Below are positions 5,091-49,670 of a stretch of DNA of 64,000 nucleotides, piece by piece; position 1 is the first letter of the stretch; the number at the start of each line of letters is the position of its first letter. The notes under the pieces were generated by a model. That model saw only the letters and a program-made list of their open reading frames with translations, did no database searches and was not told where the DNA came from. The position numbers and the translations under genes are program-made. Source of the DNA: a virus (taxonomy: Duplodnaviria > Caudoviricetes); the IMG/VR virus record IMGVR_UViG_3300036975_000017, positions 4,499 through 68,498 of that record, one strand, 5' to 3'.

Positions 5091-5652
5091 CAAGGCCGTT
5101 CAAGCCTGCAATGATTATTTGAGGATGGGGGCAGGGCGGTCAATTGCCGACTTAGTGCGCCACTATCAGGAAACTCCAAAAAACTCCACGCCTACGCAAT
5201 CTTTAGGAACCACCCACAAATGGGCGCAAGCCTATGGTTGGAATGAACGCGCCGAGTCTTACGACGTTCGCATAGAGGAACAAAAGAACAAGCGCGCCGA
5301 AGAAATTATGAATAGCGGCTTGGCCCTTGAACACGAACGCACCGAAAAACTAAAAGACCTTTATGCGCTACTCGAAAAACAACTCTTGGAAACCGATCCC
5401 GTGACGGGCGTTTTACACAATCTTTGGCTGAAAGACTATAAATCAATTGGTCAGGGTGAGGCGCTCGAAATCGAGCGTTTTAACGCGGCGCTTGTCCGTG
5501 AGTTACGCGCCACGCTGGAAGACATAGCGGCGGAAACTGGTGGCCGCGTCAAGAAACAAGAACTCACCGGCAAGGACGGCGCCCCGGTCACCGTGTCATG
5601 GCAAGAAATTGTACGCAATGCGATAGATGAAGGTGAGTCCACCGACGAATGA
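5038..5652 (+). CDS. Terminase small subunit
   Basis: N-terminal HTH-like region, C-terminal KQELTGKDGAPV motif, directly upstream of TerL. Confidence 0.75.
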   Translation: MSKKIRLLAGARQKGESSKAVQACNDYLRMGAGRSIADLVRHYQETPKNSTPTQSLGTTHKWAQAYGWNERAESYDVRIEEQKNKRAEEIMNSGLALEHERTEKLKDLYALLEKQLLETDPVTGVLHNLWLKDYKSIGQGEALEIERFNAALVRELRATLEDIAAETGGRVKKQELTGKDGAPVTVSWQEIVRNAIDEGESTDE

Positions 5653-7319: not shown

Positions 7320-7655
7320 ATGACGCACGTAAAGATTGGTAAGCAGACTGATGGATCAATTACAGATATAGAGGGGGTATGTAAGGATATATCTTTCGAC
7401 CACAAATTCTCCCCTCTTGATTTAAATAGCGTTGATGGTCTCGATTTTGGATCGTGCGGCGAAGAGTTTACCATAACGGTGAAGCGGCGCACCGCTGTGG
7501 CGGTGATCGAAGTTACGAAAATAGAGGATGATTACGCGACAGTCAAAATAACCGGCGATGTTAACAAAGACGATCCACGCATTGAAGAAAAGGTTTTGGA
7601 TTTTCTGGCGCGTGATGCTGTACCGCCGTTTTCGTTTGTAATATTCAATGACTGA
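7320..7655 (+). CDS. Hypothetical protein
   Basis: Co-oriented ORF between TerL and portal. Confidence 0.55.
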   Translation: MTHVKIGKQTDGSITDIEGVCKDISFDHKFSPLDLNSVDGLDFGSCGEEFTITVKRRTAVAVIEVTKIEDDYATVKITGDVNKDDPRIEEKVLDFLARDAVPPFSFVIFND

Positions 7656-7671
7656 GTGAAAGGGGCGGTAG

Positions 7672-7995
7672 GTGAGTAAGGCAGAAGAGCTAAAGCGTCA
7701 AATTGAAGTCTTGCAAAATGAACTTGAGCATGTGCTTATGGAGGGCGAAAAACAAAGGGTAAAGGTCGAGTCATGTTCGGCTGGCGAGCTTGTCGATTTT
7801 TTGAAAGATGTGCCGCGCGAAGCAAAGCTTTGTTTTCATCGGGGAGACTGGGGTATCCATCCCGTGATAAAAGACGTGCGTCAGATTTTTTATTATCACG
7901 AAAAAGATGGCGTTGTTTCAATCAAGGCGACTGCGCCGCGCGGGGTTAATGATATAAAAATTTCTGCAACCGATATGATACGTTGGCGACCATAG
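7672..7995 (+). CDS. Hypothetical protein
   Basis: Co-oriented ORF, GTG start. Confidence 0.55.
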   Translation: MSKAEELKRQIEVLQNELEHVLMEGEKQRVKVESCSAGELVDFLKDVPREAKLCFHRGDWGIHPVIKDVRQIFYYHEKDGVVSIKATAPRGVNDIKISATDMIRWRP

Positions 7996-12654: not shown

Positions 12655-12958
12655 CACAAACAAAGGCGGTATCGCGCAAGTAGCGCGATGGGTATCTAGT
12701 TTACTCGGAAACAATACGAATGATATTGACGCGCTTCAATCTGAGCTTGACGCCGAAGTGGATCGAATTAGCAGTGCCATACCCGGCGCACGAAGCGTTG
12801 ACTCGGAAGCCGCCGGCGCACTGAGTTCGGCACGTAATCGCATATCACACACACGCGTGAGACTGACAGCGCTTCGCAATGACCTGACGGCAGCGCAAGA
12901 GGAGTTATCGGATGCCGAACGTCGCCTGAAGCGCGTTGGGCCAAGCGAGTATAAGTAA
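12647..12958 (+). CDS. Coiled-coil head-region protein
   Basis: Heptad-rich; lies between portal and protease. Confidence 0.6.
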   Translation: MSNTNKGGIAQVARWVSSLLGNNTNDIDALQSELDAEVDRISSAIPGARSVDSEAAGALSSARNRISHTRVRLTALRNDLTAAQEELSDAERRLKRVGPSEYK

Positions 12959-14676
12959 TGGCGAAGTACGATCACATTGACTTTGTGCCAAATGATGGCA
13001 TGGTCGATGAAGCGGAGCGCGGCTTGGCTTGGCGGCGTGATTTCAATCGCGGTGGCACAGAGATAGGCATAGCGCGGGCGAGAGATATTTCAAATCGCGT
13101 CAATCTTTCACCGCGAACGGTGCGCCGCATGAAGGCGTATTTTGATCGTCACGAAGTGGACAAAGAGGCCGAAGGGTTCCGCCCTGGCGAAGAAGGCTAT
13201 CCAAGCAATGGACGAATCGCGTGGGCATTATGGGGCGGTGACCCTGGGCAAACGTGGGCAGAGGTGCGTGTTAGACAGATGAATGAGGCAGATGAAAAAA
13301 TGAGCAAAAAACACAAACAACGCGAATGCAAATCATTTCCCGCGTTCGTAAAACAAATCGATGAAGACAAAGGTATTGTTGAAGCCGTGGTTGCCGTGAT
13401 GGGCAACATTGACTACGGCGGCGACATTATTCATCCCGGCGCGTTCAAAAAGACGATTGCCGAGAACGGTAAAAAGGTGCGTGTGCTCGACAACCACAAT
13501 GCGCATTCGATTATGAATGTTGTTGGTATACCGGAAGACATTCGCGAAATTGGGCGGGATGAATTGCCGAGCGTACTGCTTAAAGAATACCCGGATGCAA
13601 CTGGCGGTCTGTACACCAAAACGCAGTATCTACTTGACACACCCGAAGGCGCGGGCGCTTTTGCGCGTATCAAGGCCGGTGCAGTAGACGAGTATTCAAT
13701 CGGGTATGATGCGATTAAGGTTGATTTTGACCAACGTAAAGATGGTGAAGACGGCACGATCCGCAATATTCGAGAAATCAAATTGTGGGAGTATTCGCCG
13801 GTGATTTTCGCCATGAACCCCGCAACGGCAACACTTGCCGCAAAAAGTGCGGTTGCGATTACGCCGGAAGGTATTATCGAGATTGATGAGAATATTTCGC
13901 TTGCCGACTGGAAGCGAATTTACAAAGCGTTCGAGAAACAATTTGGTATTACTACACCAATGGTGGGCATTATGACAGAGCAAAAACGAGCAATCCCCGC
14001 ACAAGACTTCCCGCTCGCGGCGCAAGACCACGCCTGGGATGGCGACGCGGCAGAAATGAGTATGCGGTTATATGCTGGCGGCCCCGACCCCGAAAATATG
14101 GATTGGGAAGAATACAGGCGCGGGTTTACGTGGTATGACGCGGAAGCGCCGGAGCTTTTAGGAAGCTACAAACTTGGTGTTGTTGAGGTCATCGATGGCG
14201 AGCCTCATGTTGTACCGCGCGGTGTCTTTGCCGCGGCCGGCGCGCTTGAAGGCGCGCGGGGCGGTGTAGATATTCCTGCTGTAGATGTTGATGGTGTACG
14301 TGATACGCTGGCGACATACTACCGCCGCATGGCCGAAGCGTTTGAGGACGAAGAAATTGTAGCGCCGTGGGATAAGACAATGCACGGCGATGAAGAAGAC
14401 GACGAAGAAAAACAAGTTGAAACGAGCGTAATGCACGAAGGCGTAATGCAGGCTATGAGTAATCTACATAACGCAGTGCAGTCGCTTGAAATGGCGCTCG
14501 CCGAGGCGGGCGCGGCAATGATGGAAGATGAAGACATGCCAGACGATGACATGGGAGCCGAGCCGCAAGCCGCACTCACTCCAGAGAAGCAGGGCGAGCC
14601 GGAGTTATCGACACTCGCAAAGCAACGCTTAGCAGAAATGGAACAACTGAAAAAAGAACTTAATTCAATGGAGTGA
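12958..14676 (+). CDS. Multidomain HK97-type prohead protease
   Basis: Central GIVEAVVAV.GNIDYGGDIIHPGAF, LDNHN, EYSIGY, LWEYSPVIFAMNP, with extra N- and C-terminal domains. Confidence 0.88.
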   Translation: MAKYDHIDFVPNDGMVDEAERGLAWRRDFNRGGTEIGIARARDISNRVNLSPRTVRRMKAYFDRHEVDKEAEGFRPGEEGYPSNGRIAWALWGGDPGQTWAEVRVRQMNEADEKMSKKHKQRECKSFPAFVKQIDEDKGIVEAVVAVMGNIDYGGDIIHPGAFKKTIAENGKKVRVLDNHNAHSIMNVVGIPEDIREIGRDELPSVLLKEYPDATGGLYTKTQYLLDTPEGAGAFARIKAGAVDEYSIGYDAIKVDFDQRKDGEDGTIRNIREIKLWEYSPVIFAMNPATATLAAKSAVAITPEGIIEIDENISLADWKRIYKAFEKQFGITTPMVGIMTEQKRAIPAQDFPLAAQDHAWDGDAAEMSMRLYAGGPDPENMDWEEYRRGFTWYDAEAPELLGSYKLGVVEVIDGEPHVVPRGVFAAAGALEGARGGVDIPAVDVDGVRDTLATYYRRMAEAFEDEEIVAPWDKTMHGDEEDDEEKQVETSVMHEGVMQAMSNLHNAVQSLEMALAEAGAAMMEDEDMPDDDMGAEPQAALTPEKQGEPELSTLAKQRLAEMEQLKKELNSME

Positions 14677-14681
14677 GTGAA

Positions 14682-16043
14682 ATGAGTGACACACAAGGTC
14701 ATGAGTTTCTGCTGAAGGCGCAAGGCTTGATGCAAGAGGCGGAGGCGGTTTATGCCGACCCTACCGCAAGCGCTGAAGCTTTTGCCGAGGCAGAAAAGAA
14801 AGTTGAAGAAGTGAAGACGCTCAAGAAACGCGCGTCTCGCCTTATCGAAGCCGGCAAGCTGATGAATGAGCTTAACGGTGAAATTAAACGCACACACAAA
14901 CCCGGCACGCCCAATATGGGTTTCCCGACGCTTGGGCATTTTGTGAGTGCGACGCTTCAAGCCGGTAATATGCGGCGAATGCAGATGAATTTGCCCGTTG
15001 ACCCGCGCTTGATGAAATACGCCTATCGCACCGACAGTAAAGAAACTGAACGCTTCGTCAAGGTTCATCAGCCCGGCGCGGGTGTTGAATCGGGTTGGGG
15101 AACGAAAGACTTGGGCGAAAGCGTGGGCAGCGCGGGCGGTTTCCTCGTACCTGAAGAATTCCTTCCCGACCTGTACGGCGTCGGTTCTGAACGCACAGCC
15201 GTGCGGTCGCGCGCAACTGTTATCCCGATGTCGCGTCGTTCGATCCGCATTCCCGTGCTCGACCAAACCGGCACAAGCAGCAATGCGCCGAATTTCTTCG
15301 GCGGTATTCAACCCGTTTGGACTGAAGAGGCGACATCGAAAGACGAAACCGATCCGTCGTTCCGGCAAATCGAATTGGTGGCGCACAAACTGACCTGCTA
15401 TACCGAAGTTTCCGACGAACTGGTGGAAGACGCGGTGATTTCGTTCGACGCCTTCCTACGCGGCCCGTTGGGTTTCGCAGGGGCAATCGCATGGACCGAA
15501 GAATACGCCTTCTTGCAGGGAACCGGCACGGGGCAACCGCTTGGCGTTTTGAACGCGGGTGCAACGATTACGGTCAACCGGCAAGCTGATGGTGAATTCC
15601 GACTCGAAGATGCGGCGAATATGCTCGAAAGCTTCTTGCCTTCTTCGACGGGTAACGCCGTATGGATGATGTCGCAGTCAGCAATGTCTGAGCTTATCAC
15701 GATGAACGGACCCGCCGGCAACCCGTCTTACGTCTTCGTGGCGAACGCAAGCGCTGCCGCACCGATGACGCTGCTCGGATACCCGATCATCTTTACCGAA
15801 AAGCTTCCGGTGCAAGGTTCGACCGGCGATGTGCTTTTGGCGGATTGGTCGTACTACCTCATCGGCGACCGCAAAGAGGTCACAATCGAATCGACCAACG
15901 TCTATAAGTTCCAGACTGACCAAACGTCCTGGCGTGCGGTTCACCGCGTAGACGGGCAACCGTGGCTCTCACAGCCCTTGACCCTGGCGGACGGCACGAG
16001 CCAAGTTTCGCCGTTTGTCATCTTGGGTGAGAAGGCGAGCTAA
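14682..16043 (+). CDS. Major capsid protein, HK97 fold
   Basis: N-terminal helical delta-like region, GGFLVPEEF, WTEE..SKDETDPSF, FLQGTGTGQPLG, LLGYPIIFTE, ADWSYY, RAVHRVDG. Confidence 0.93.
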   Translation: MSDTQGHEFLLKAQGLMQEAEAVYADPTASAEAFAEAEKKVEEVKTLKKRASRLIEAGKLMNELNGEIKRTHKPGTPNMGFPTLGHFVSATLQAGNMRRMQMNLPVDPRLMKYAYRTDSKETERFVKVHQPGAGVESGWGTKDLGESVGSAGGFLVPEEFLPDLYGVGSERTAVRSRATVIPMSRRSIRIPVLDQTGTSSNAPNFFGGIQPVWTEEATSKDETDPSFRQIELVAHKLTCYTEVSDELVEDAVISFDAFLRGPLGFAGAIAWTEEYAFLQGTGTGQPLGVLNAGATITVNRQADGEFRLEDAANMLESFLPSSTGNAVWMMSQSAMSELITMNGPAGNPSYVFVANASAAAPMTLLGYPIIFTEKLPVQGSTGDVLLADWSYYLIGDRKEVTIESTNVYKFQTDQTSWRAVHRVDGQPWLSQPLTLADGTSQVSPFVILGEKAS

Positions 16044-32224: not shown

Positions 32225-35200
32225 ATGGCGCGACGTAATACAATTGAAGTCATCATAAAAGGCGAAGACGATGCCAGCGGCGCGTTCAAGCGTGTTTCGT
32301 CTTCGCTTGATGGGTTAGGTGACGCGGCAAATCAAGCGCTCGCGCCGGTATCTAAGTTCGGCTCATTCATGCGCGACACCTTCAGCACTGCCGCCGGTAT
32401 GCTCATGGCCGACGCGGTGGGCGCGGTGACTTCACGCCTTGCCGACTTCGGACGCGCCATGATCGACACCAACGCCGACATGGAGACTTTCGCTTCACAG
32501 TTTACGACGCTGCTCGGAAGCGCTGAGGCAGCAGAAGAGCGCCTTGCGTCCTTGACCGACTTCGCAAAAAAAACCCCTTTCGATCTCCCTGGCGTTATTG
32601 AAGCCAATCGCATGCTAACCGTTTTCGGCGAGGGCGTTTTGGATACCGAAAAATACATGACGCTTATCGGCGACGCGGCGGCGGGCGCTAATACTAACTT
32701 TGCCGAACTTTCAACCTGGGTTGGGCGTGCTTACTCTGCTATTCAGGCCGGCAAACCATTTGGCGAAGCGTCGGCGCGGTTACAAGAGTTAGGTCTACTG
32801 ACGGGCGAACAGCGCGCGTTGCTCGAAGACATGACCGCGGCCGGGGCAGATAGTACCGAGGTGTGGGGTGTACTTACCGACGCACTGAGCAAATTCTCCG
32901 GTGAGATGGCGAATCAATCTTCGACCTTTAAAGGTATTCAGTCGAATATCGAAGACACCTGGGAAGCCCTAACGCGCACGATAGGCAAGCCAATCTTTGA
33001 TTTTGCGAAAGAAGGGGCAGAAAGCTTTTTGGGCTTCCTTGAAAGTGATTTCGCGCAAGAAGGCGCGCAGCGCATTGCTGAGTTTATTGAAGGCGCACTT
33101 ACGGGATTCAAAGAGCTTCGCTCAACAATAGGCGAAGCGATTGGTGAATTAGCCAGCGAAACCGAAAATTTCTTTAGCGCGCTACAAGTGGGGAATATCC
33201 GCGATATCGCCGGCACATTTACACACTTAGCAACTGGAATTATCGATGTAACAGCATCGCTCTTGGGGTTAGAACCGCCTATAAAGCGCTTTGGTACTGA
33301 ATACAGTGTCGGCCTTAGTCGTTTTGCCGATGCGGTAGAGTCAGCGTTTAAATTTATTCAGAATAACGGCGAAACAATCCGCGCTATCTTTGAGGCAGTC
33401 GGTAAGGCAATCCTAACACTCATCACCGTATCAAAGGGTATCAGTATTATCACGGGCGCGGTTACGTTGCTCGCCGGCGCACTTTCACCCATCAATGCAA
33501 TTATCTTGGCGCTGTCTGCGGCCTTTTTTGCGTGGGATCAAAACCTGTTCGGTATCCGGGACACACTAACGCAACTTGCCAACACGATTAACAATATCTT
33601 CGGTCCAGCGATACAAGAAATCTTTGACTCGTTAAGCGCCGGTAATCTTGAAGGCGCGGCGCAGGGATTTAAAAACCTGTTTTCGCAAATAGGCGCTTTT
33701 GTTGAACAGGGTATCGCGCAAGTAAAACCCAAACTCGAAGAATTCGCTAATGCCTTTGTTCGTGACATCGTGCCGCAAATTCCCGTCGTAATCGCGCGCC
33801 TGGGCGAGCTTTTGAGCGGCATTCTCAACTGGGTAGTACAAGCAAACTTTGCCATTCAACAGGAAGTGGTACGATGGGCGGGCGCGTTTATTGAATGGAT
33901 AGAACCGCAAATCCCCGCGATTTTACGCGAAATGCTTAGGATAACGAATGCAGTCGTGGACTGGATTATTAAGTCCGCCGGCGAGTTTTTGCATACGCTA
34001 GGGCAGTGGGTGCAGGCGTTCTTGCCCTGGGTCGGGGAAGTCTTGCGCGATTTGTTACCGCGCTTGGGAAAAATGCTTGGTGATATTGCCGATTTCCTAA
34101 TCTCCGAAGGTATCCCCGCCGTCATCGGCTGGATTGGCAGCGCGGCAAAGATGCTGGCGAAAGAGTTACCCGACATTTTAAAGGCGTTCGTGAAATTCAT
34201 CGCCAACGACTTCGTGCCGGCCGCATTTCAGGCGGGGCGCGATATCGTAGATGGTATTGTACGCGGGCTTGGAAAATTGGGACAAAAAATTGTAGATGAA
34301 GTACAAAAGGGACTCGATGACTTCCGTCGAAATTGGAACCGCTTCTTTGGTCCTAACGGTCCCGTACAGCAAGCGATTAGAAACTTCGTTGCCGCCGTGC
34401 TTGACATGCTGGCAGATATGATTGACCAGAGTTTCGGTTTTCTGCGTGACCTGGGCGTAAACCTTGACGGGCTAACGGGTGACGTGCGCCGCACGGCAGA
34501 CACATTACGCGCCGAAGCAAACAAAATGGCGTCGGCATATGAAACAGAAAGTAAACGAATTAGCGCGGCGAGCGGACGTACTGTTAGTGATGTCGTGGCG
34601 AATATACGCAATCTATTTCCCGCGTTCGCCGAAGCGTCAAATGCATACGGTTCATTTGCGTCAAGCGCTGAAAGTGCCAGCAATCGCGCGTCAAACGCGG
34701 CGCGTCAAAGCGCTGCCGCCATTAATAATGCCAATCGAAGTATAACACCACCGCTCAATCAGGTGGGGTTTGGGTATGGCAATTACGCAAATGCCGCGAC
34801 AAGCGCCGCGAACAAAGCGGCAAACGCATCAAGACAAAGCGCTTCATCAATTAATAATGCCTTGCGTACTATTCCGCCGAATTTAAATAATATCGGTTCG
34901 GGCTTTGGCTCGCTGGCAAATAACGCCGGCCGCTCGCTGGGCAGCGTTTTGGGCGCAGCGCAACAAGCACAGCAGGGCGTGCAGAATGTTGCGGGGGCGG
35001 CACAGCAGGCGGCGCAAATAGCGCAGCAGGCCATGCAAATGACAACGAACGTAACGACAAATGTGCAAACGAGCGTCAATGTCAATATCAACACGCGCGA
35101 GCTTGCCATAAAATTGCAGGCAATTTATGATGCCACGAGCAATATTTTATTTGAGATGACGCGCGCGGGCGTTAAGCCCGCTGACCCTAACGCCGAAGCG

Positions 35201-35509
35201 CGCCAACGCTTTGACATTTCTAATCACCTTGCGGCGATGCGGCAAGAACAGCAAACGCAATTAAACATCGTCGCTCAATACCTATCATTTATAAATAATA
35301 GCACGAGTAAAATTCGTAGCATCATGAGTCAGTGGTGGAATATTGCGAGTTCGAGCTTAATGAATCCTAATACAGCGGGCGGTAGTGCGGCGGTCGGCGA
35401 TACCATTGAAAATCAAATTATTATCGAGGGGGATTTGAATGTTGCCGTTGCGTCACCCGATCAAATCCCGCAGACCATTGAAAGCCTGGAGGCGTTAGCA
35501 GGAGCATGA
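32225..35509 (+). CDS. Tape measure protein
   Basis: 1094 aa, helical and Ala-rich; tape-measure domain (FAKKTPFDLPGV), W/F-spaced repeats. Confidence 0.92.
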   Translation: MARRNTIEVIIKGEDDASGAFKRVSSSLDGLGDAANQALAPVSKFGSFMRDTFSTAAGMLMADAVGAVTSRLADFGRAMIDTNADMETFASQFTTLLGSAEAAEERLASLTDFAKKTPFDLPGVIEANRMLTVFGEGVLDTEKYMTLIGDAAAGANTNFAELSTWVGRAYSAIQAGKPFGEASARLQELGLLTGEQRALLEDMTAAGADSTEVWGVLTDALSKFSGEMANQSSTFKGIQSNIEDTWEALTRTIGKPIFDFAKEGAESFLGFLESDFAQEGAQRIAEFIEGALTGFKELRSTIGEAIGELASETENFFSALQVGNIRDIAGTFTHLATGIIDVTASLLGLEPPIKRFGTEYSVGLSRFADAVESAFKFIQNNGETIRAIFEAVGKAILTLITVSKGISIITGAVTLLAGALSPINAIILALSAAFFAWDQNLFGIRDTLTQLANTINNIFGPAIQEIFDSLSAGNLEGAAQGFKNLFSQIGAFVEQGIAQVKPKLEEFANAFVRDIVPQIPVVIARLGELLSGILNWVVQANFAIQQEVVRWAGAFIEWIEPQIPAILREMLRITNAVVDWIIKSAGEFLHTLGQWVQAFLPWVGEVLRDLLPRLGKMLGDIADFLISEGIPAVIGWIGSAAKMLAKELPDILKAFVKFIANDFVPAAFQAGRDIVDGIVRGLGKLGQKIVDEVQKGLDDFRRNWNRFFGPNGPVQQAIRNFVAAVLDMLADMIDQSFGFLRDLGVNLDGLTGDVRRTADTLRAEANKMASAYETESKRISAASGRTVSDVVANIRNLFPAFAEASNAYGSFASSAESASNRASNAARQSAAAINNANRSITPPLNQVGFGYGNYANAATSAANKAANASRQSASSINNALRTIPPNLNNIGSGFGSLANNAGRSLGSVLGAAQQAQQGVQNVAGAAQQAAQIAQQAMQMTTNVTTNVQTSVNVNINTRELAIKLQAIYDATSNILFEMTRAGVKPADPNAEARQRFDISNHLAAMRQEQQTQLNIVAQYLSFINNSTSKIRSIMSQWWNIASSSLMNPNTAGGSAAVGDTIENQIIIEGDLNVAVASPDQIPQTIESLEALAGA

Positions 35510-38001
35510 CGACAATAAATATTATTGTACCGGAAGCAACAACCAACCTTATCATCAACCCATCAATCGAAACCAACACGACCGGATGGACGGCAATCGG
35601 TGGCGCGGCGTTGGCGCAAACATCAGACGAACAACGCCGCGGCGTTTATAGCCTGGAAGTAACACCCGGTGTCGGCGTTACAGACGGCGTGTATTATCAA
35701 ATTGACGGCATTTCTGCCAACACTAATTATAGCTACAGTGTAGATTTCAAGGGCGCTAACAATATTCCGTATACCATTTATCTGTATGATGTAGGAACTG
35801 GGCAACCGTTGGGGACCCCGCAGGAAATTACCGGGGATGGGGAATGGCATCGCTACAGTGACACGGTGCAGAGTTCGCTTGGCGCGTCGGTACGTCTGTA
35901 TATTGCAAAGTTCAACAGCCCGTCGGTTGATCCGTGTTATGTTGATGGCGCGCAACTTGAACAGAAAAGTAATGTAACAACCTACTGCGACGGCGACCAA
36001 GTGGGCAACAACGTCACGCTGCCCGGCTCTGTGCCGGCCTATCGTTGGAACGGTACACCGCACGAAAGTACATCGAGCCGCGATGCGGCAACCACCGCCG
36101 GCGGTCGTATCATCGACATGGAAGCGCTGGGTACAGTTTATAATATTCAAATCGGCGGCATGGAAGGCGGCGGTTTTGCGCCACAGTTCCATAACACGCA
36201 AGACCTCGCACTACTGGAAGGCGCACAACTACAAAGCGTAAAAGTCGAACCGCGTATCATCACGATTTTTATTCGCACTGACGCAAGCGGATCTGACATG
36301 AATCCCGGCAACTATATCGCGCGGGATCAACTCGAAAAACTTTTGACGCAAGACCGCATTGCACCGCTTCAACCCGTTATCATTGAATGGTCTGACACCG
36401 GGCATCGTATCAAGGCTTATTATCAAGATGGACTACAGGCGCGTTGGAACGCGAACGATGCGCCCGGTGGCTGTGCCTATGAAATTTTCCAACTTCGCTT
36501 AATTTCGTATGATCCATTCTGGTTTGAGGATGGACAGGCGGGATACAATTTAGATTTAGCGCAGTCAGACAGCCCGGTCGGAAATGTCGATTTTACGTAT
36601 ATTCGGGAAGATGGCGCGTGGCGACAGGTACAGGTTGACACTTCGCTCGCAATCGAAGTCATTACGCCCGATCTCGTTAACCCCAACGTCTTTTGGTTCG
36701 GGGGATCATTTACGAGTATTGACGGTGTTGCAGCAAACTATGTTGCAAAATATGACAGGTACAATGATACATTTACGGCGCTAGGCGTGGGCACAAATAA
36801 CACGGTCTACGCAATTGCCGTTCACCCCAACGGTGATATTTATATCGCCGGCAACTTCACGCAGGCGGGTGGAGTGGCAAATAATGGTATTGTGAAATAC
36901 ACACCGTCAACGGGAACTTACGCGAGCCTCGGAACCGGGCTAACGGCGGGCGGCGCGATTCTTGTACGCAATGTTTTGATTGAACCAGAAACGGGCGACG
37001 TGTACGCTGTAGGGAGCTTTACGCAGGCAGGCGGTGCGGCAGCAACCTATATCGCCAAGTGGGATGTATCTGGCTCCGCCTGGACTACACTTGGCACGCC
37101 AGAGGGGTTAAGCGGCACGGATGCGCGCGATATTGTCCGAACGCTTGATGATGAGTATATCGTAGTCGGAGACTTTACTGGTTCTAACGACGGTGAAACG
37201 AGTGAAAATATTATCACCTGGACCGGCTCAGCGTGGGAAGCATTTCCTGTCGGTTTGGCAACAGCCGCGGACGGTGCAGAGGTTGCGAGTAATGGCGACG
37301 TGTATATCTTTGGGCAGTTCACCGATACCGACCCTTCGACGAGTAGCACGCTCAATAAAATCACGTTGTGGAATGGTTCGCAGTTCGCCCCGCTCGGTGA
37401 TGGTACAACCGGATCGATTCGCCAAATTGCGCTAGGTCGTGACGGGGCACTGTATGCAATCGGTGCATTTTCTGCAATCGGTGATATTGAAAACGTAGAC
37501 GGGTTTGCCATTTGGAATGGAACCGCATGGGTCAACATTGACATTGAAAAAGAGGCGATTCTCGCAAACGCGCTTACGGTTGACGTTTACAACAATGTCA
37601 TTTTTTCGGATGGCACTGTTGACCCAACGGTTGAATATTCCGCAATTACAACAGTCAACAATCCCGGCACGAGTACGGCTTGGCCGATTATTAAGTTAAC
37701 AGGTCCCGGTGAGTTTCGGTGGATCGAAAACCAGACGACAGGCGACCGGCTTTATCTTGATATGGCATTGCTTGAAAAAGAGGAAGTAATTTTCAATCTT
37801 GCGCCGCAGCGCAAAAGTATCGAAAGCAACTTTGATATAAACCGCCTCAAGAACGTATTGCCGGGTAGTAATCTATCGTCGTTCCGTTTGCTACCAGGCG
37901 ATAACACGGTTGCAACTTTCGCGGTAGATACCACAGGCGATACAAAGATCGAAATGTATTGGGATATTCGGCATAGTAGCGCCGATGGGGGCACGGCATG
38001 A
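35506..38001 (+). CDS. Distal-tail-like protein with CBM-like N-terminus and inserted beta-propeller
   Basis: NLIINPSIE (CBM-like), YDPFW, repeated GxF..A..IA.WxG blades, Dit-like C-terminus. Confidence 0.7.
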   Translation: MTTINIIVPEATTNLIINPSIETNTTGWTAIGGAALAQTSDEQRRGVYSLEVTPGVGVTDGVYYQIDGISANTNYSYSVDFKGANNIPYTIYLYDVGTGQPLGTPQEITGDGEWHRYSDTVQSSLGASVRLYIAKFNSPSVDPCYVDGAQLEQKSNVTTYCDGDQVGNNVTLPGSVPAYRWNGTPHESTSSRDAATTAGGRIIDMEALGTVYNIQIGGMEGGGFAPQFHNTQDLALLEGAQLQSVKVEPRIITIFIRTDASGSDMNPGNYIARDQLEKLLTQDRIAPLQPVIIEWSDTGHRIKAYYQDGLQARWNANDAPGGCAYEIFQLRLISYDPFWFEDGQAGYNLDLAQSDSPVGNVDFTYIREDGAWRQVQVDTSLAIEVITPDLVNPNVFWFGGSFTSIDGVAANYVAKYDRYNDTFTALGVGTNNTVYAIAVHPNGDIYIAGNFTQAGGVANNGIVKYTPSTGTYASLGTGLTAGGAILVRNVLIEPETGDVYAVGSFTQAGGAAATYIAKWDVSGSAWTTLGTPEGLSGTDARDIVRTLDDEYIVVGDFTGSNDGETSENIITWTGSAWEAFPVGLATAADGAEVASNGDVYIFGQFTDTDPSTSSTLNKITLWNGSQFAPLGDGTTGSIRQIALGRDGALYAIGAFSAIGDIENVDGFAIWNGTAWVNIDIEKEAILANALTVDVYNNVIFSDGTVDPTVEYSAITTVNNPGTSTAWPIIKLTGPGEFRWIENQTTGDRLYLDMALLEKEEVIFNLAPQRKSIESNFDINRLKNVLPGSNLSSFRLLPGDNTVATFAVDTTGDTKIEMYWDIRHSSADGGTA

Positions 38002-39110
38002 CAACTGGCGGACCGCTGCACGAACTCTATCTATCACGACCGGACGGAACGCGCATCTCATTAATCGATACCGCGCAGCGTTTTGATTATACCCGCGCCC
38101 TGAACGACACTGGTACATTTACACTAACGCTGCCGGGTGACTTTGACGACACTTTTTTACAAGACGGCTACCGCGTTGAATTTTGGTACAAACCTGAAGG
38201 CGGAACCATCTTTCTTGATTTCCTGGGTTTCATCCACAAACCGAACTATATCACCGATCAGGAGGGTCGCGAGAATATTATCGTGACTGGTATTGATCCA
38301 ATCGGGCTATTGAAGCGCCACCACGTTGCATATGATAGCGGTACGTCACAAGCAAAAAAAAGCGGCGCGGCTGACGATGTAATGAAAGAAATTGTTGACG
38401 AAAATTTTAGCACGAGCGCCACGGATACCGACCGGCGTATTAGCACAGAGTATCTAACTGTTGCCGGTATTTTTTCGCTAGGGCCTACGGTAAGTAAATC
38501 TTTCGCTAGGCGAAATGTTCTGACCGTCTTGCGCGAAATTGGAGCTGACGCCTTTGAAAACGGCACGCCGGTATATTTTGATCTCGTGCGTATCAGTCAG
38601 AACGAATTACAATTCCAAACCTTTATAAACCAGCGCGGTAGAGATCAACGTTTCGCCAGCGGTTCCGGTCTCGTCTTTAGCACCGAGCGTGGCAACTTGC
38701 GCGTACCGGATTATTCATTGGATTTTAGCGACGAGGTAAACGCTATTTATGTGGGCGGGCAAGGGCAAGGCACAGACCGCCAAGTCGTGCAGCGCGAAGA
38801 TACTACACGCACCGGGCGCAACATTTGGGCGCGGCGCGAAAAGTTCATCGACCAACGAAATACCAATGCAACGGCGAGCTTGAACAGTGAAGGTGATTCG
38901 GCTTTACGCGCTGGTATCCCGCGCAAGCGATTTAGCGGCGAACTCGTGTCAACCGATGAAACGCAGTACGGGAGAGACTGGAATTTCGGCGACCGCGTTA
39001 GCGCCGAAGCATACGGTCAAATTTTTGATGGTATTATTCGGGCGATTAACGTTTCGCGTGACGGAAAGGGATATGTGGCAATCACAGCGCGCCTAGAGGT
39101 CGAAGAATGA
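37998..39110 (+). CDS. Minor tail/baseplate hub protein (ReqiPepy6 gp37-like)
   Basis: LN..GTFTL, N.IYVGGQGQG..R, YGRDWNFGDRV. Confidence 0.75.
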   Translation: MTTGGPLHELYLSRPDGTRISLIDTAQRFDYTRALNDTGTFTLTLPGDFDDTFLQDGYRVEFWYKPEGGTIFLDFLGFIHKPNYITDQEGRENIIVTGIDPIGLLKRHHVAYDSGTSQAKKSGAADDVMKEIVDENFSTSATDTDRRISTEYLTVAGIFSLGPTVSKSFARRNVLTVLREIGADAFENGTPVYFDLVRISQNELQFQTFINQRGRDQRFASGSGLVFSTERGNLRVPDYSLDFSDEVNAIYVGGQGQGTDRQVVQREDTTRTGRNIWARREKFIDQRNTNATASLNSEGDSALRAGIPRKRFSGELVSTDETQYGRDWNFGDRVSAEAYGQIFDGIIRAINVSRDGKGYVAITARLEVEE

Positions 39111-40780
39111 CGATAAACGAACAGATGTTGAGGCGAATCATAACTCTAGAAAGACGCGCTGACTATTTTGATACACTAGAAGAGCGCGAAACGTTTACGA
39201 TTGCCACGCTTCCGGCAAGCGCTGCTAATGGCGCGGTTGTCTATGTCTCAGACGGTCTAAAGTCTGGCGAAGTATCAGGAAGTGGTACGGGTTCCTGGGC
39301 GATGTGGAATGATACTGCGAGTGAGTGGGAATATTTTTGTATTGGCGATTATGTACAATTGCTTGACGGTGTAACGAAAACCGTCAAGGCGGCGGGCGGC
39401 GACTACACCACCATTCAGGACGCAATTGATTTTTTCTCTGGTGGCAAGCTGGTCACCGATTGTACAATTGAAGTTGACGCGGGGACATATAGTGAGGCGT
39501 TGACTATTTCTTCAGATCTTCACACGACCGGATCGAGTGAATTATTGATTGAGGGCGACACGCGCGATCTCGCGGGTTTGAGTTATGTAAATGGCGTAGA
39601 CAGTTCAACAGCAACCTGGGCAGCGGCAACAGGCTATACTGCTGCAACAAGTAAGGTTGTGCCAACAACGATTAATGGACTTTATTACCGCGCTACGACA
39701 ACCGGCACAAGTGGCGGCGCTGAACCGGCGTGGCCTACCGCAATCGGCGGTACTGTAGTGGACAATACGGTAACATGGCTAGCCGAAGGTGTTCCGGTAA
39801 ATCGTGCTGCCCAAACGAACGGCGGTACAACAAGCGGCGCATGTCAACTCGTGCGTAGCGGCGGAAGCAACGAAATTTTGACAGTAACGGTTGCCACGGT
39901 CGATCCTGACTTTGACGCTGATTCTTGGGGGAACGGCGACAAGGTACTGGTGTGGGATGGCTCAGCTTTAAGCGAACTTACAATTAGCTCCACTTCAAAT
40001 AATACAATTACCGTAACAACGTCTTGGCCGGCAGGTATCGAGTCTTTTGGCGGCGCGTTTACACTATTACCAGATCGCATCATTTCACAATCTGGTGGTA
40101 GTAATCCGGTGACGGTAACCGGCTCCGGTGCGAAATTTCAAGGATTTTATTTTAAATCGGAATCATCAAGCGTGTATTCAATTTTTGCGGAGGGGGGCGA
40201 TTTAGTTGTTGAAAACTCCGCAATTTATGCTGACACAATTGGTATATTTGCACAGTTCTCGCGAGTTGAAAGCGCAACAACCAGCCTATCAATTATAACC
40301 GACGCGGATCGTTGCGTTTTGACGGGATCGGCGGCACAGATTAAGGTGCGCCGATCTGTATTTATAAATGGTCGCGTTGTGGCTGCCGACCTTTCGTTTA
40401 TCATTTGTGACACATCGGTACTGACACGCGCAACCGCGAACGTTGGCTATCAGATCGCACGCAACGGCGCGGGTATGGAGGCATTTTTCTGCTATGCGCT
40501 TAATGCGTCCAGTGGGTATGAATGTACCTCTGGTGGCTCTATGCGTGCGCAATCGAGCTTTGCGTATAGTTGCACAAATGGTATTTTTGCACAATACAAT
40601 TCAATTATTCAAGCTGTGTCGGCAAGCGCACGCGACTGCACAACTGGTTTTCGCGCAACCATCGCGGGTGTAATTGACGCGCGTGCTACGAGTACGCTTG
40701 TGTACAATAATACAACAGATTACAACCCCGCCGCAGACGCAACGGCAGCAACCGACGGCGCGGTTATAGATAGGAGCTAG
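39107..40780 (+). CDS. Tail fibre/receptor-binding protein
   Basis: GGDYTTIQDAI...I.VDAGTYSE (beta-helix start), TWAAATGY...GTSGGAEPAWPT module, C-terminal beta-helix repeats. Confidence 0.75.
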   Translation: MTINEQMLRRIITLERRADYFDTLEERETFTIATLPASAANGAVVYVSDGLKSGEVSGSGTGSWAMWNDTASEWEYFCIGDYVQLLDGVTKTVKAAGGDYTTIQDAIDFFSGGKLVTDCTIEVDAGTYSEALTISSDLHTTGSSELLIEGDTRDLAGLSYVNGVDSSTATWAAATGYTAATSKVVPTTINGLYYRATTTGTSGGAEPAWPTAIGGTVVDNTVTWLAEGVPVNRAAQTNGGTTSGACQLVRSGGSNEILTVTVATVDPDFDADSWGNGDKVLVWDGSALSELTISSTSNNTITVTTSWPAGIESFGGAFTLLPDRIISQSGGSNPVTVTGSGAKFQGFYFKSESSSVYSIFAEGGDLVVENSAIYADTIGIFAQFSRVESATTSLSIITDADRCVLTGSAAQIKVRRSVFINGRVVAADLSFIICDTSVLTRATANVGYQIARNGAGMEAFFCYALNASSGYECTSGGSMRAQSSFAYSCTNGIFAQYNSIIQAVSASARDCTTGFRATIAGVIDARATSTLVYNNTTDYNPAADATAATDGAVIDRS

Positions 40781-40782
40781 AT

Positions 40783-41220
40783 GTGTGGCTGATAATTTAT
40801 CCCGACAATGGCGAAGTAACTGCAAATACGGTTTATCAAGTAGACGAAGTAAAGCCGCAGGATAGTGATTATCCGGCATTCAAAATAAAATTCTGGAACG
40901 GTCGTGTACCATGCAAAGAAAGCTTTGATCCCGAAAACGGCGCACTCATCCCCGGCGACATCGACCCTACCCTACACGCCAACTTAGACGAACGCAAAAG
41001 CGCCGCCTATGCCACCGATGGCATATCTGATAAAATGATGCTCGATGCGCTATGGCGACACGTCATTGAAGCGCGGCAGGATGATAGCGAGCAAGTTCAA
41101 GCGCGCCGTGTTCGTATCGCAGAACATGAAACACGACGCACGCGCACAATCAACAAAACTAGACGAGAGGTAAAAAAGGTATGGCAACGCCAAATTCGGG
41201 TCAGTGGGCCGTTGACCTAA
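40783..41220 (+). CDS. Tail fibre-associated protein (putative chaperone)
   Basis: Position directly after the fibre gene. Confidence 0.45.
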   Translation: MWLIIYPDNGEVTANTVYQVDEVKPQDSDYPAFKIKFWNGRVPCKESFDPENGALIPGDIDPTLHANLDERKSAAYATDGISDKMMLDALWRHVIEARQDDSEQVQARRVRIAEHETRRTRTINKTRREVKKVWQRQIRVSGPLT

Positions 41221-41474
41221 GCAATTGGAGCGCAGACCAGTTAGCGGTATATCGAAACGCAAGCCGTCTGCTCGATGAGTACAATGATACCGGGTTGGTG
41301 GCAATTATCACCGCGCTTCCGAATGGTAGTGATTTAGTTCCTGGTATGGGAGACCTGACCAGGGATGATGTGACTAACGGCATCAATACGATAAACAGCT
41401 TGATTTCTGACATGGAGGCGGGGCATCGAACCAATTTGAACAAGATCATCGCAACTCACCCGCCGACGGCATAA
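41181..41474 (+). CDS. Hypothetical protein
   Basis: Overlap-coupled. Confidence 0.5.
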   Translation: MATPNSGQWAVDLSNWSADQLAVYRNASRLLDEYNDTGLVAIITALPNGSDLVPGMGDLTRDDVTNGINTINSLISDMEAGHRTNLNKIIATHPPTA

Positions 41475-41495: not shown

Positions 41496-42080
41496 ATGGA
41501 TCAGGGTCTCGCCTCCGAATTCATAGCGTTGGTCGAGCGCCACCTTTCAACGGAAGGCGAGCGTCACGCGATTTTACAGAAGTGTTGTACAGGGTTATTG
41601 CCGCGACTAGACCTTACCCAACCCGCGCATGTATTCGCAGCGAACGCCTGGGCGCTGCTAAATGCTTACGGTGAGCTAAAGCCGGGGAAACCGGCAGTGG
41701 TTGCGTTTTTAGAAGAACTGCGTAACAATGTTGGCGTAGATCAAATTAGGATTATCGATGATTTAATTTTGGCAATTACCGACACGCATATGGCAACAAT
41801 CGCACCACCACCAACTACCGATGATTCTGTCGAGGTCTGGAAGCTCAAAACGCTTTATGATCTCGGTAAAGGCTTTGCTTCACTTACCGAGCGTGTATCA
41901 CTTGCGTGTGATGCAGTTGAAAAAATAGACACATTAACCGAGGCGGTTGATCGTATTGACGAACAAACAAGAATAAATCGGCGTGGTATGATATTCAATC
42001 GTGTCTTTTTTTTTACGATTATAACGGCTGATGTCCTTGTTTTAATTTTAGTCTTGGCATCCACGGGGATTCTAGCATGA
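41496..42080 (+). CDS. EAD-like helical domain plus coiled coil plus C-terminal TM helix
   Basis: N-terminal ~85 aa aligns with 48949-49266; TM VFFFTIITADVLVLILVLA. Confidence 0.55.
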   Translation: MDQGLASEFIALVERHLSTEGERHAILQKCCTGLLPRLDLTQPAHVFAANAWALLNAYGELKPGKPAVVAFLEELRNNVGVDQIRIIDDLILAITDTHMATIAPPPTTDDSVEVWKLKTLYDLGKGFASLTERVSLACDAVEKIDTLTEAVDRIDEQTRINRRGMIFNRVFFFTIITADVLVLILVLASTGILA

Positions 42081-42202
42081 ACGGGTTTACGAAGGTTCTC
42101 GCGGTTATCGCGTTGGTTTTGACGATAATTGTTATCTTAGTTTTGATTGCCGTTGCACTGTCTGGCGCAACCGCGCCGGCTATTTTGTTCTTAGGAGCTT
42201 AA
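42077..42202 (+). CDS. 41-aa membrane peptide (absent from the ORF track)
   Basis: ATGA-coupled; MNGFTKVLAVIALVLTIIVILVLIAVALSG... Confidence 0.55.
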   Translation: MNGFTKVLAVIALVLTIIVILVLIAVALSGATAPAILFLGA

Positions 42203-42203: not shown

Positions 42204-42626
42204 ATGAAAAACTTGCTTTTGTTCGTGGTCGTTCTGGCGCTGCTTGGTGGCGCTCAAACTGTGGTAGCTCAGGAAGATACCGCCGTCAGTATCGAAGGCG
42301 TTCTGTTGCCAGAGTGGGCTAATCAACTTGCCTTTGGGACCGTCGCGCTCTCCTCGTTTGCATGGGGGGCGGTCGAGATCATCAAGTGGATTCTAAAAAT
42401 CATCGGCGTTTACAAGGACGGGTGGGGGCGCTACATCGTTTTCGTCGTGGTGGCTGCGCTTGTCGTGTTGGCGCTAGGGGCTGAAATGCTTGATGCTCAG
42501 GCGCTAGTAGATGAAAAAGTTGAATGGGTTTACCAGCTAATGCAATTCTTCCTGGCGTTAATTGGCGCGCCGATTGTGCATCAAACTGTGAAGAAAAGCG
42601 GTTTGTTGCCATCGAGCGAAGAATAG
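42204..42626 (+). CDS. Holin-like multi-pass membrane protein
   Basis: Signal-like N-terminus, about three TM helices, end of the late operon. Confidence 0.5.
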   Translation: MKNLLLFVVVLALLGGAQTVVAQEDTAVSIEGVLLPEWANQLAFGTVALSSFAWGAVEIIKWILKIIGVYKDGWGRYIVFVVVAALVVLALGAEMLDAQALVDEKVEWVYQLMQFFLALIGAPIVHQTVKKSGLLPSSEE

Positions 42627-42640: not shown

Positions 42641-42780
42641 GTAAGCTCTGGTACAGGCGGAGCAGAGCCAAGCACAGAACCTTTGATGCGCTAGCGCTGA
42701 AACCAGTCTGCTGCCGAAACAGCCACAGTAGGCGCGAATCAAAAAAAGCCCCGACCGTTTGGCCGGGGCTTTGTCTTTTC
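42641..42780 (+). ncRNA. Candidate small RNA with H-type pseudoknot
   Basis: Promoter, then an ORF-free structured segment, then a terminator. Confidence 0.35.
42741..42780. terminator. Bidirectional intrinsic terminator between the convergent arms
   Basis: A7-GCCCCGACC-loop-GGCCGGGGC-TTTGTCTTTT. Confidence 0.8.
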
Positions 42781-42860: not shown

Positions 42861-43277
42861 TTATGACGTGTAAATTTCTATGCTTTCATAGTCACAATAA
42901 AACTTACCGTCTTGCATATTGGATCTCATAACAAAAAACTTCCCCGATAGCCATTTCTGGCTCGCGATGGGCAATCTTAAATTAACGTAACTTCTGGGCT
43001 TCATGCATGGCGCGGCGGATTCCATAACGATATGCACGTTCCACTTTTGCGTATCTGGTGTATCAAGCCATCCAGTAATTGAAATGGCATCGACCTTCTG
43101 ATTATTGAGATCAAAATTACAACTCCATACCTCGAAGTTTGGTACAGGATGCCGGCTTTGATATTCGCGCGAAAAATAAAAGTCGTCGCACCTATGACTT
43201 AGCTCCGGCTCCATGCCAGTACGCTTGTCATCGGTCGAGAGCGCAGGCTCCAGGCCGGTCGAGTCGTTATCGCTCAT
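42861..43277 (-). CDS. Hypothetical protein
   Basis: Coupled leftward ORF. Confidence 0.55.
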   Translation of the reverse strand: MSDNDSTGLEPALSTDDKRTGMEPELSHRCDDFYFSREYQSRHPVPNFEVWSCNFDLNNQKVDAISITGWLDTPDTQKWNVHIVMESAAPCMKPRSYVNLRLPIASQKWLSGKFFVMRSNMQDGKFYCDYESIEIYTS

Positions 43278-45727: not shown

Positions 45728-46717
45728 TCATTTCCACACCCTTTCCCGGCGCGCATACTTCGCCAGTCCCCGCGCGTTTGCTGTCACCGGGTCGTCAAGC
45801 AGGGTAACACCGCGATAACCCATCGCCTGTACCGTGTTCTTAACCAATCGTGCGCCACCGCCTACCAGCAGCGTCACCGCTGCGGTGTTTTCGCCATTGG
45901 GCCAAACGCGACCAATCTCAGCGGCGACCTGTGAGAGCCATTCATTGCGCGCGCCATCCACTAGCGCAATAATATCATTGCCGGCGGTCGTGAAAGACGC
46001 TTTCTTTTCGAGTAGTTCATTAGCTACCGCTAGCGACACGGCTTCACCATACTCGCCGTAGATTGCATCTTTCAGTGCCTTAGCTGCCCACGAGAAGCCG
46101 AGGGGCGCACCGCCCGATAGCGCCGGTACATGCTTTGCGTCGTGCATGACCGTGAGGTCAAGTGTATTGCTCCCCACATCGACCACGGCGAAATTGAATT
46201 CTTCTTCTTGGCGACTGAGACGCCAAGTTCCATTTTCGTCAAGCGCATACTCATAGAACGCGCCGGCGGGTTGGGCGCGGGCGAGAACTTTTTGTACATT
46301 GACGCCATAAGATTTGTCATCAACGGTAAAGACGTGTTGCCCCTGTAGCCAAGCGCGCAGCTTGCGCGCGGTTGTTGCCGCATCGCCGGACATCAAAACG
46401 CCAACCGGAAGCCCGGCGACGATACGTAGATCATGCGATCCGGCGGGCAGTAGTTGCGCCAACGCTGCATAGGTCAACGCGCGGGTTTCCCAGGCATCGC
46501 CAAAGATGTCTCGGTCGGTGCGCATGTCCGCACCGCGCTTGCCCACGTAGACGGTTGCACCATTGAACCGTACAACTGTCTCGGTTTCTTTCTTTACGCC
46601 GTGCATTCGCACTTGCGGCGCTTGCGTGGCAAGGGAGCGAACACACGCCGTTACCGCGTCGGGGGTGAGCGCTGCCTTAAATCTATGGTTGGCGATGTCT
46701 ATTGACAATGATTGCAT
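45728..46717 (-). CDS. parM: ParM/StbA-like actin-fold ATPase
   Basis: SIDIANHRFK (phosphate 1), IVAGLPV, AQPAGA, VVDVGSNTLD (phosphate 2), LLVGGGA, DPVTANARG; start MQSLS has an AGGAG SD. Confidence 0.85.
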   Translation of the reverse strand: MQSLSIDIANHRFKAALTPDAVTACVRSLATQAPQVRMHGVKKETETVVRFNGATVYVGKRGADMRTDRDIFGDAWETRALTYAALAQLLPAGSHDLRIVAGLPVGVLMSGDAATTARKLRAWLQGQHVFTVDDKSYGVNVQKVLARAQPAGAFYEYALDENGTWRLSRQEEEFNFAVVDVGSNTLDLTVMHDAKHVPALSGGAPLGFSWAAKALKDAIYGEYGEAVSLAVANELLEKKASFTTAGNDIIALVDGARNEWLSQVAAEIGRVWPNGENTAAVTLLVGGGARLVKNTVQAMGYRGVTLLDDPVTANARGLAKYARRERVWK

Positions 46718-46727
46718 TCGTTTTCTC

Positions 46728-47054
46728 CTAATCCCACGGCATCGCTTCATCAAGCGACGACGCGATAGCTTCCGTTTCGATGGCTTCCCGCACCTCACCC
46801 GGCGCGACTTGTAGTTGATAACGCGATAGTACCGCCTCGACAATGCGTTCTATAGCATCGAGATCGATTGCGGTCAACGCGCCCCTTTGTGTTTGCGTCT
46901 GACCATTTAGTCCTGCGCGCAGCAGCCCCCGAACAATCTCAGCTTTATTCACAGTACGCGGATCACGTTCGCCAAGCTCAGCAAAAAAATTGCACAGGTC
47001 AGCGTCACGCTTTGGGTCTAATGGTGTGTTCGGTACTCGTGTAATTTCGATCAT
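46728..47054 (-). CDS. ParR-like ribbon-helix-helix adaptor
   Basis: LDPKRDADL...NKAEIVRGLLR; directly upstream of the ParM-like gene. Confidence 0.6.
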   Translation of the reverse strand: MIEITRVPNTPLDPKRDADLCNFFAELGERDPRTVNKAEIVRGLLRAGLNGQTQTQRGALTAIDLDAIERIVEAVLSRYQLQVAPGEVREAIETEAIASSLDEAMPWD

Positions 47055-48948: not shown

Positions 48949-49266
48949 TTACTCTCCGCGTTCAATCGGTGCAATCGTGGCCTTTTTCAAAAAGTCGGTG
49001 ATATTGTTCCAGATATTATCGCCGACGCGCCGGTTTAAAGACGCTAGCAACGCGACAAATGCCGGCTCTTCATTGTACTCGTGTTCAAGTAGCATGCGCG
49101 ATACATTTTCAACAAACGGGAGCGCCGCACCGCTGTAATCGATGCTGTCAAGGATACGAGAACACCCAAAGAAAGCGCTGTAGAAAAGAGCACGCCGCCC
49201 ACTAGAGCTACCACAATGCGGTATCAAGAATTGTTTCATTCCATCGATATATTCGCTTTCTTTCAT
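48949..49266 (-). CDS. Stand-alone EAD-like helical protein
   Basis: RRALF...IDYSGAA..FV...PAFVALL..L..RVG; paralog of the 41496 N-terminus. Confidence 0.55.
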   Translation of the reverse strand: MKESEYIDGMKQFLIPHCGSSSGRRALFYSAFFGCSRILDSIDYSGAALPFVENVSRMLLEHEYNEEPAFVALLASLNRRVGDNIWNNITDFLKKATIAPIERGE

Positions 49267-49670
49267 TGTTCAACTTCCTCTTGCATCGCCTTCGCAACTT
49301 TATTCGCTAGCGATTTACCCCATCCATTAAGCACTGAAAACATATTGACAGCAAAGGTTGTTTGTTGCCCTTCGTAGTAAATGCTATAGAGGATGTTATG
49401 TTCGCCAATGATGTCCCGGAGCTTGGCGGACCGTTCAGCAGCATTTACCGGAAACGTTCGTTTTGCCAGATCGGTAAAGGTGCGCTGCCGAGCGCCAAAC
49501 CATTTGCCAATTTCTGTCATTTCTTGCCGCGCTGCCTGACGCTCATCTTCTGGTGCGCGCCAATCGCGTTCCACTTTTTTTGCAAGCTCAGCGCGTCGTG
49601 ATTTTTCACTGCACACTTCATCGTTGAAATAGTTCATTTTTATCTCCTTATTTTTGCCTTGATTGCTCAA
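49263..49670 (-). CDS. Hypothetical protein
   Basis: Likely start MNYFND with AAGGAG SD. Confidence 0.55.
   Translation of the reverse strand: MSNQGKNKEIKMNYFNDEVCSEKSRRAELAKKVERDWRAPEDERQAARQEMTEIGKWFGARQRTFTDLAKRTFPVNAAERSAKLRDIIGEHNILYSIYYEGQQTTFAVNMFSVLNGWGKSLANKVAKAMQEEVEQ

Follow-up and report, generated by a model that had tools for sequence, protein, structure and literature searches.

The locus described here raises the question of why a tailed phage should carry, close to the end of its late operon, a membrane-anchored relative of an adaptor domain of bacterial conflict systems, and what that protein may do in the infected host. The effector-associated domains (EADs) were predicted by comparative genomics to be the bacterial counterparts of the CARD, Pyrin and Death adaptors, and to our knowledge almost nothing about them has been tested. 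EAD8 is the effector-associated domain of NTPase-centred bacterial conflict systems (Kaur, Burroughs, Iyer and Aravind 2020, PMC7159879; Kaur et al. 2021, PMC8195603); homotypic coupling through EADs was proposed in the same two papers, the first of which places EAD8 among the EADs for recruiting additional effectors (PMC7159879). Lectin-type FGE/CLec domains form the end of many EAD8 sensors, and Kaur et al. suggested that these domains may sense glycans.

The window, which is the whole 64,000-nucleotide stretch of DNA that was analysed, comprises bases 4499-68498 of a linear IMG/VR record of 68,498 bp, rated ~79% complete by CheckV. A sequence-only reading had placed in it an EAD-like domain, closest to EAD8, anchored by a coiled coil and a transmembrane (TM) segment within a lysis cassette.

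Domain family and predicted architecture

The gene (41496..42080, + strand) is the third from last of the late tail operon and encodes 194 aa. Its position was found in the ORF list exactly as the sequence-only reading had given it, and the peptide that it cited corresponds to residues 58-90. The start codon is supported by four metagenomic relatives, whose N-termini are alike (MDQSLASEF, MGDQSLSAEF, MNNELSVEF). The protein consists of a head (residues 1-101), encoded by 41496..41798 (+), a PPPTTDD linker (102-111), a stalk (112-165), the sequence RINRRG and a TM segment at approximately residues 166-190.

Pfam family PF19961 (EAD8) was matched by residues 12-91 against profile positions 10-93 of 96 (E = 4.4e-11, 43.8 bits, gathering score 27), and the 194-aa protein had no match to any other Pfam family, catalytic families included. 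A six-frame family search of the whole viral record scored the late EAD8 gene at 45.3 bits. A custom EAD8 HMM, built from 70 hits outside the phage-type clade, was run against all 912 ORFs of the record and gave the late gene 96.6 bits (E = 4e-29). An exhaustive HMMER search of 1.84 billion representative proteins returned 75 hits, all of which carried EAD8 in a Pfam scan. The other domains among these hits were TIR_2 (15), TIR (7), TPR (7), AAA_16 (6), nSTAND1 (5) and WD40 (5), all of them of types described for conflict systems. Nine residues are conserved in at least 90% of the 75 sequences (R23, F47, L55, G59, G64, A67, L72, G80 and L90), and the phage head retains all nine. The EAD8-TM protein and its neighbours had no match in PADLOC, PHROGs or NCBIfam, and no homologue of the EAD8-TM protein was detected by tblastn among 50,697 phage records or 72,556 plasmids.

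The AlphaFold2 model of the full-length protein, made from the 75-sequence alignment, had a pLDDT of 92.5. It placed the head helices at residues 3-16, 20-30, 32-37, 44-58, 67-76 and 81-101 with a short hairpin at 60-66, left the linker (102-111) unstructured and continued as a single unbroken helix over residues 112-190. Modelled alone, the N-terminal head reached a pLDDT of 93.5 and a pTM of 0.84 and was all-alpha apart from the hairpin, with a Death-like bundle of six helices as its predicted fold. Searches of PDB and BFVD with Foldseek returned nothing significant (best E 0.3-0.8); weak matches (E of at least 0.3) repeatedly included the pyrin-like domain of CENP-N, the FADD DED, the Fas DD, the Apaf-1 CARD, the MC159 vFLIP and poxviral pyrin proteins. 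The ESM Atlas gave no usable match, and a sequence search found no solved EAD8 structure. The attribution of the head to an EAD-like domain closest to EAD8 was thus borne out by a Pfam score above the curated threshold. A missing EAD hit together with a fold unlike that of EADs would have spoken against it; what was obtained is the Pfam match and a predicted Death-like bundle of six helices.

The hydrophobic window at residues 170-188 has a Kyte-Doolittle value of 2.77, as for a TM anchor. The whole hydrophobic stretch (about 166-190) is followed by a C-terminal tail of four uncharged residues (GILA) and preceded by RINRRG. With the basic residues on the N-terminal side of the TM segment, the positive-inside rule predicts a tail-anchored protein whose head and stalk are cytoplasmic. 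The stalk has an amphipathic character: in its best heptad registers, 10 of 16 a/d positions are hydrophobic. The architecture previously read from the letters, a head, a helix and a C-terminal TM segment at a late site among membrane-protein genes, was therefore right. Its TM segment was upheld and its coiled coil in part: the model has one helix at 112-190 that is compatible with heptads, for which 'coiled coil' is a reasonable description.

One other identity was rejected. An i-spanin has an N-terminal TM segment, a periplasmic coiled coil and an o-spanin lipoprotein partner, and the phage protein matches none of these: its TM segment is C-terminal, its helix and head are predicted to be cytoplasmic, and the neighbouring ORFs lack a lipobox Cys. 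The arginine pair before the TM segment resembles a Tat motif, but it is not conserved, the relative P0005 having QR in its place, and it lies at the wrong end of the protein.

The 'EAD principle', by which an EAD is found on a core component, be it VMAP, iSTAND, STAND or GAP1, and on an effector of the same operon or genome, does not describe the phage record. By its sequence, the phage protein is placed in the EAD8 domain family and outside the canonical EAD-coupled systems, since no NTPase core, sensor or enzymatic effector in the record carries EAD8. The gene encodes a tail-anchored, adaptor-only member of EAD8 that has no enzymatic or effector domain.

Like the proteins of the cellular EAD8 systems, it belongs to the family by a curated HMM, its EAD8 is small, non-catalytic, all-alpha and N-terminal, it keeps the near-invariant residues, and more than one copy per genome occurs in the phage also. 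Unlike them, it is encoded by a phage instead of a cell, has no fused or adjacent NTPase, sensor or enzymatic effector, combines EAD8 with a helical stalk and a C-terminal membrane anchor, and falls in a clade of its own. The searchable supplementary tables of PMC8195603 pair EAD8 with trypsin, TIR, iSTAND2 and nSTAND1+FGS, and the string 'EAD8+TM' is absent from those searchable tables.

The membrane-protein cassette and its relatives

By gene content the window genome is siphovirus-like, with genes for the large terminase (5649-7058), portal (10132-12654), protease (12958-14676), major capsid protein (14673-16043), tape measure (32225-35509), a Dit-like protein (35506-38001), a Sipho_Gp37 protein (37998-39110) and the tail fibre (39107-40780). 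Between the tail fibre and the EAD8 gene lie two small ORFs of 145 and 97 aa (40783..41474, +). The nearer of them (41181-41474) ends 21 nt before the EAD8 start, and inspection of this 21-nt gap revealed no promoter of note belonging to the EAD8 gene.

Downstream, the ATG of a 41-aa single-TM ORF (42077..42202, +) overlaps the EAD8 stop codon, and the resulting ATGA overlap at 42077-42080 indicates that the two genes are translationally coupled. It is followed by a gene for a 140-aa membrane protein (42204..42626, +) with an AGGAG ribosome-binding site, a signal-like N-terminus, three hydrophobic segments and a charged C-terminal tail. This multi-TM protein is a candidate holin that has no family match. 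With its homologues P0078-P0080, to which it is 47-54% identical, it belongs to a small, unnamed family, a candidate for a new family of holins, which is ~55% identical from end to end and has invariant WGR and EW.YQ motifs. A bidirectional intrinsic terminator (42745..42772; 12-bp stem, 8 GC pairs, A-run upstream and T-run downstream) ends both the rightward late operon and the convergent leftward operon.

The earlier description of these genes as a lysis cassette was upheld in so far as the last three late genes all encode membrane proteins and are followed by a terminator. None of the three proteins matched holin, spanin, lysin or defence families in Pfam, PHROGs, PADLOC or NCBIfam, so the lysis label is drawn from position and membrane character. 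No holin or spanin families were recognisable in the window phage or in its complete relative, G302 (see below). Peptidoglycan-hydrolase families were likewise absent from the screened ORFs of the ~79%-complete record, including the 4.5 kb outside the window, and from the 77 ORFs of the complete relative. The absence of an endolysin noted earlier thus holds for both genomes as the absence of a recognisable one, and its simplest explanation is an unrecognised lysin among the hypothetical proteins.

Four full-length relatives of the EAD8-TM protein, P0002-P0005, are metagenomic singletons that are 42-52% identical to it and have the same head, PPP linker, helix and C-terminal TM segment. The closest of them, P0002, and a homologue of the 140-aa protein (P0079) come from the same source and from an ENA contig of the same length (4729 bp), and so apparently lie together. 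EAD8 followed by a helical region and a C-terminal TM segment is also seen in the more distant P0006, P0007, P0008, P0011, P0012 and P0044, and the layout occurs in about 11-12 of the 75 hits. In a tree of EAD8 heads, a long stem leads to a single clade of phage-type proteins (SH-aLRT 99). TM tails are clustered on this tree, with 3 changes of the label required as against 10.4 in shuffles; the tree is otherwise unresolved.

A scan with the 140-aa family led to a fragment (L024) of a 61,289-bp IMG/VR genome (G302), which has direct terminal repeats and is rated 100% complete. The gene order in the fragment is a tail protein, a 729-aa fibre, a 131-aa ORF, the EAD8-stalk-TM gene, a 34-aa ORF and a 146-aa protein. 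The 729-aa fibre and the window fibre have a GGDYTTIQDA...DCTIEVDAGTY block in common, and the 131-aa ORF sits at the position matching the small upstream ORFs of the window. The EAD8-stalk-TM protein of the relative (5298-5906, 202 aa, Pfam 50.2 bits) is 48% identical to the window protein over 125 residues (E = 7e-34). Its stop codon is overlapped by the 34-aa single-TM ORF (5896-6000, +), which abuts the ATG of the next gene, the 146-aa homologue (6001-6441) of the 140-aa multi-TM protein. After the cassette the coding strand switches, and a homologue of the window's 138-aa leftward gene follows. At least two phage genomes have thus kept the position and the coupling of this three-gene membrane cassette.

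Several further features of the two phages were recorded. Their 41-aa and 34-aa single-TM peptides keep their position and show little sequence similarity. The first convergent leftward gene, at 42861-43277 (-) in the window and 7545-7901 (-) in L024, has I.VTGW.D.PDTQKW..HI in common and no family match. A tyrosine integrase and a Gp3-like recombination directionality factor mark the complete relative as temperate; no integrase was found among the screened ORFs of the window phage. Maintenance genes appear to differ between L024 (8654-9664, -) and the window (45728-46843, -); the complete relative also gives an actin-like (MreB-like_C) match, and the window phage has a ParM/actin-like gene. 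The relative also encodes a Macro domain protein and a pentapeptide-repeat protein (ORF sets A8 and A9), domain types with anti-defence or mimicry roles in other phages. Both phages have a module of sugar- and methyl-transferases.

Across six family members, the head and the PPP linker average 55% and 53% pairwise identity, the stalk and the TM segment 25% and 21%; the family of the neighbouring 140-aa protein averages 55% along the whole length. To judge from these alignments, the head is the conserved part, on which selection appears to act, and stalk and anchor seem to keep their physical character only. Such poor conservation of stalk and TM segment fits a tether better than a sequence-specific pore.

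Scans with the EAD8-TM protein or the family alignments found nothing in viral, genome or metagenome contigs. When the queries were the capsid protein and a Gp37 relative of 67% identity, the yield was no more than a 6.4-kb fragment or nothing. A further locus reached through a Gp37-like protein (L003) was rejected as a syntenic relative because an integrase follows directly. Among the public sequencing runs that are indexed, the locus was present in a wetland metagenome only, which may be where the record came from, and the sequencing-run search listed no RNA runs that contain it.

The window phage has a second, stand-alone EAD8 gene of 105 aa (48949..49266, -) in the early leftward operon. 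Pfam scores it at 23.4 bits, below the cut-off of 27, and the custom HMM at 39.2 bits (E = 3e-11 among 912 ORFs), a match by which the ORF is taken to be a real EAD8 domain. Over 88 columns the early and late heads have 22% identity, and each resembles different cellular EAD8s more closely than it does the other copy, for which reasons a recent duplication was rejected as their origin. By the published rule that interacting EADs are close relatives, pairing between the two copies is improbable. The early gene is absent from the complete relative, which leaves the late anchored gene as the conserved one. Just upstream of the early gene lies an ORF (49263-49670, -) whose C-terminal residues 81-129 match the first half of the EAD8 profile at a borderline score (13.9 bits; E = 0.002 with 912 ORFs searched), and which may hold a truncated third EAD8-like module.

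EAD8 was present in 2 of the 301 Acidobacteriota genomes searched, and matches to the phage stalk or TM segment in none of the 301. In a Blastocatellia MAG of this phylum (L007 7668-11079, DAOLKO010000016.1), an EAD8-TIR gene has a second EAD8 gene a few kb away, which is followed by an FGE/lectin-type protein, in the pattern described in PMC7159879 and PMC8195603; this 8.6 Mb genome encodes five EAD8 proteins. The host of the window phage is not indicated by the nearest cultured capsids, which are 34-39% identical and belong to Caulobacter and Streptomyces phages, nor by the phage epimerase, whose neighbours are spread across many phyla.

Readings of function

The closest precedent is pCARD of Acinetobacter phage 133, a CARD-only protein that inhibits CARD-dependent bacterial gasdermin defence (Wein et al., PMC10312443). 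Both are phage-encoded adaptor domains that lack an effector, the present one Death-like in its predicted fold, and interference with the homotypic contacts of host suicide immunity would be expected of the phage EAD8 also. pCARD is CARD-like and soluble, its gene lies next to rIIAB and its function was shown by experiment, whereas the present protein is an EAD8 with a predicted membrane tether, encoded late at the lysis position and of putative function. The viral FLIPs (MC159) and the poxviral pyrin-only proteins are soluble proteins of viruses with eukaryotic hosts; they have no detectable sequence relationship to the phage protein, and their moderate structural similarity to its head is non-significant by Foldseek. 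The EAD8-TM protein is, as viral adaptor-only proteins are by definition, a virus-encoded adaptor domain that comes with no effector.

We tentatively favour, at somewhat less than an even chance, a dominant-negative or sequestering decoy that blocks the EAD8 suicide immunity of the host. Through like-with-like contacts, EAD8 domains would connect sensors of the STAND or lectin type with TIR, protease and other death effectors. The phage head, predicted to lie in the same compartment as TIR and STAND partners, would bind host EAD8-bearing proteins homotypically and hold them at the membrane, the tether adding sequestration. The sensor would thereby be uncoupled from the effector and abortive-infection suicide blocked late in infection, at a time when structural proteins of the kind sensed by STAND receptors would be accumulating. 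A blocker made late would be timely, since capsid, portal, tail tube and tape measure are among the late proteins that STAND/Avs families detect (bioRxiv 10.64898/2026.01.04.697583). The decoy is favoured because the protein has no effector, only its head is conserved, pCARD offers a precedent and the gene is late; the second, soluble EAD8-only gene of the early operon also counts in its favour. As both phages have the sugar- and methyl-transferase module and many EAD8 sensors carry lectin-type domains, a glycosylated virion might, speculatively, be the trigger that the EAD8-TM protein counters.

The sequence-only reading had left open whether a tethered copy sequesters host EAD effectors or co-opts them for cell death and lysis. 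These are opposite outcomes between which the present evidence is undecided, and the function is one that we infer; conservation confined to the head, together with the pCARD precedent, leans towards sequestration. Co-option is the core of the main alternative, possible though less likely, in which the three membrane genes act jointly in lysis timing or in the hijack of host effectors. The Death-like head might polymerise at a threshold, or might recruit EAD8-tagged TIR NADases or proteases, and so time membrane failure, the suicide wiring of the host being exploited rather than blocked. The run of three membrane-protein genes before a terminator agrees with this, as do the ATGA overlap, the same order and coupling in the complete relative, the apparent joint presence of the 140-aa homologue and the closest EAD8-TM relative on one ENA contig, the clustering of TM-tailed EAD8 on the tree and the missing recognisable endolysin in both genomes. 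The last point has a simpler account in an endolysin hidden among the hypothetical proteins, and the cassette proteins resemble no holin, antiholin, spanin or lysin family. As a small membrane protein encoded at the end of a late operon beside others, the EAD8-TM protein is like holins and antiholins; it differs from them in its large cytoplasmic N-terminal domain, its single, poorly conserved C-terminal TM segment, its uncharged C-terminal tail and the lack of an adjacent endolysin, and it does not qualify as a holin. Its stalk and TM segment are the least conserved parts (21-25%), unlike the holin-like neighbour, which suggests a tether and not a specific pore former. Host death effectors activated before assembly ends would, moreover, harm the phage. 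A bolder version, that this lineage ends infection through the Death-like suicide wiring of the host, is rather improbable. Abortive-infection machinery would then serve as the lysis trigger, with the anchored head polymerising at a threshold or recruiting EAD8-tagged effectors beside the holin-like protein, and in the window phage the early soluble EAD8 would act as a brake until assembly is complete.

The grouping of EAD8 with effector-recruiting EADs (PMC7159879) would also suit a phage-borne, membrane-disrupting effector that plugs into host EAD8 sensors and thereby makes lysogens abort the infections of other phages. The complete relative is temperate and the window phage has a ParM-like partition gene, and the site of the EAD8 gene between tail fibre and lysis genes suits an accessory gene. 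That interval is a common site of accessory (moron) genes. Against such superinfection exclusion, which we consider very doubtful, the gene has no promoter of its own and is embedded in the late operon behind a 21-nt gap, which makes expression in a lysogen unlikely; no PADLOC defence model matches, and the variable TM segment argues against a dedicated pore former. We give equally little credence to a chance capture, with the EAD8 fold reused as an oligomerisation or scaffold module in a membrane or virion-assembly role unrelated to conflict systems. Death-like helical bundles are generic interaction modules, but this head has kept every near-invariant residue and scores 96.6 bits against a profile that excludes its own clade, and a second EAD8 gene in the same phage is hard to explain if there is no EAD8 network to engage.

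Implications for EAD8 biology

The EAD8 domain family and the idea of viral adaptor-only decoys were already known. Within the searches run, what appears to be new is the occurrence of EAD8 in phages, its membrane tether, the three-gene cassette at the lysis position and the presence of an EAD8-TM protein in a lineage with no recognisable endolysin. The sole experimental precedent, pCARD, is thereby joined by a second adaptor family and by a new feature, a membrane tether in a conserved cassette of three genes. Should the lysis-linked reading be true, the timing of phage lysis would be tied to the programmed-death wiring of the host in a lineage in which no endolysin is recognisable. The presence of an adaptor-only EAD8 in a virus is an independent line of evidence, from evolution, that contacts through EAD8 are important during infection, and the phage head is a natural probe, which should pick out its host partners and switch an EAD8-coupled system off or on.
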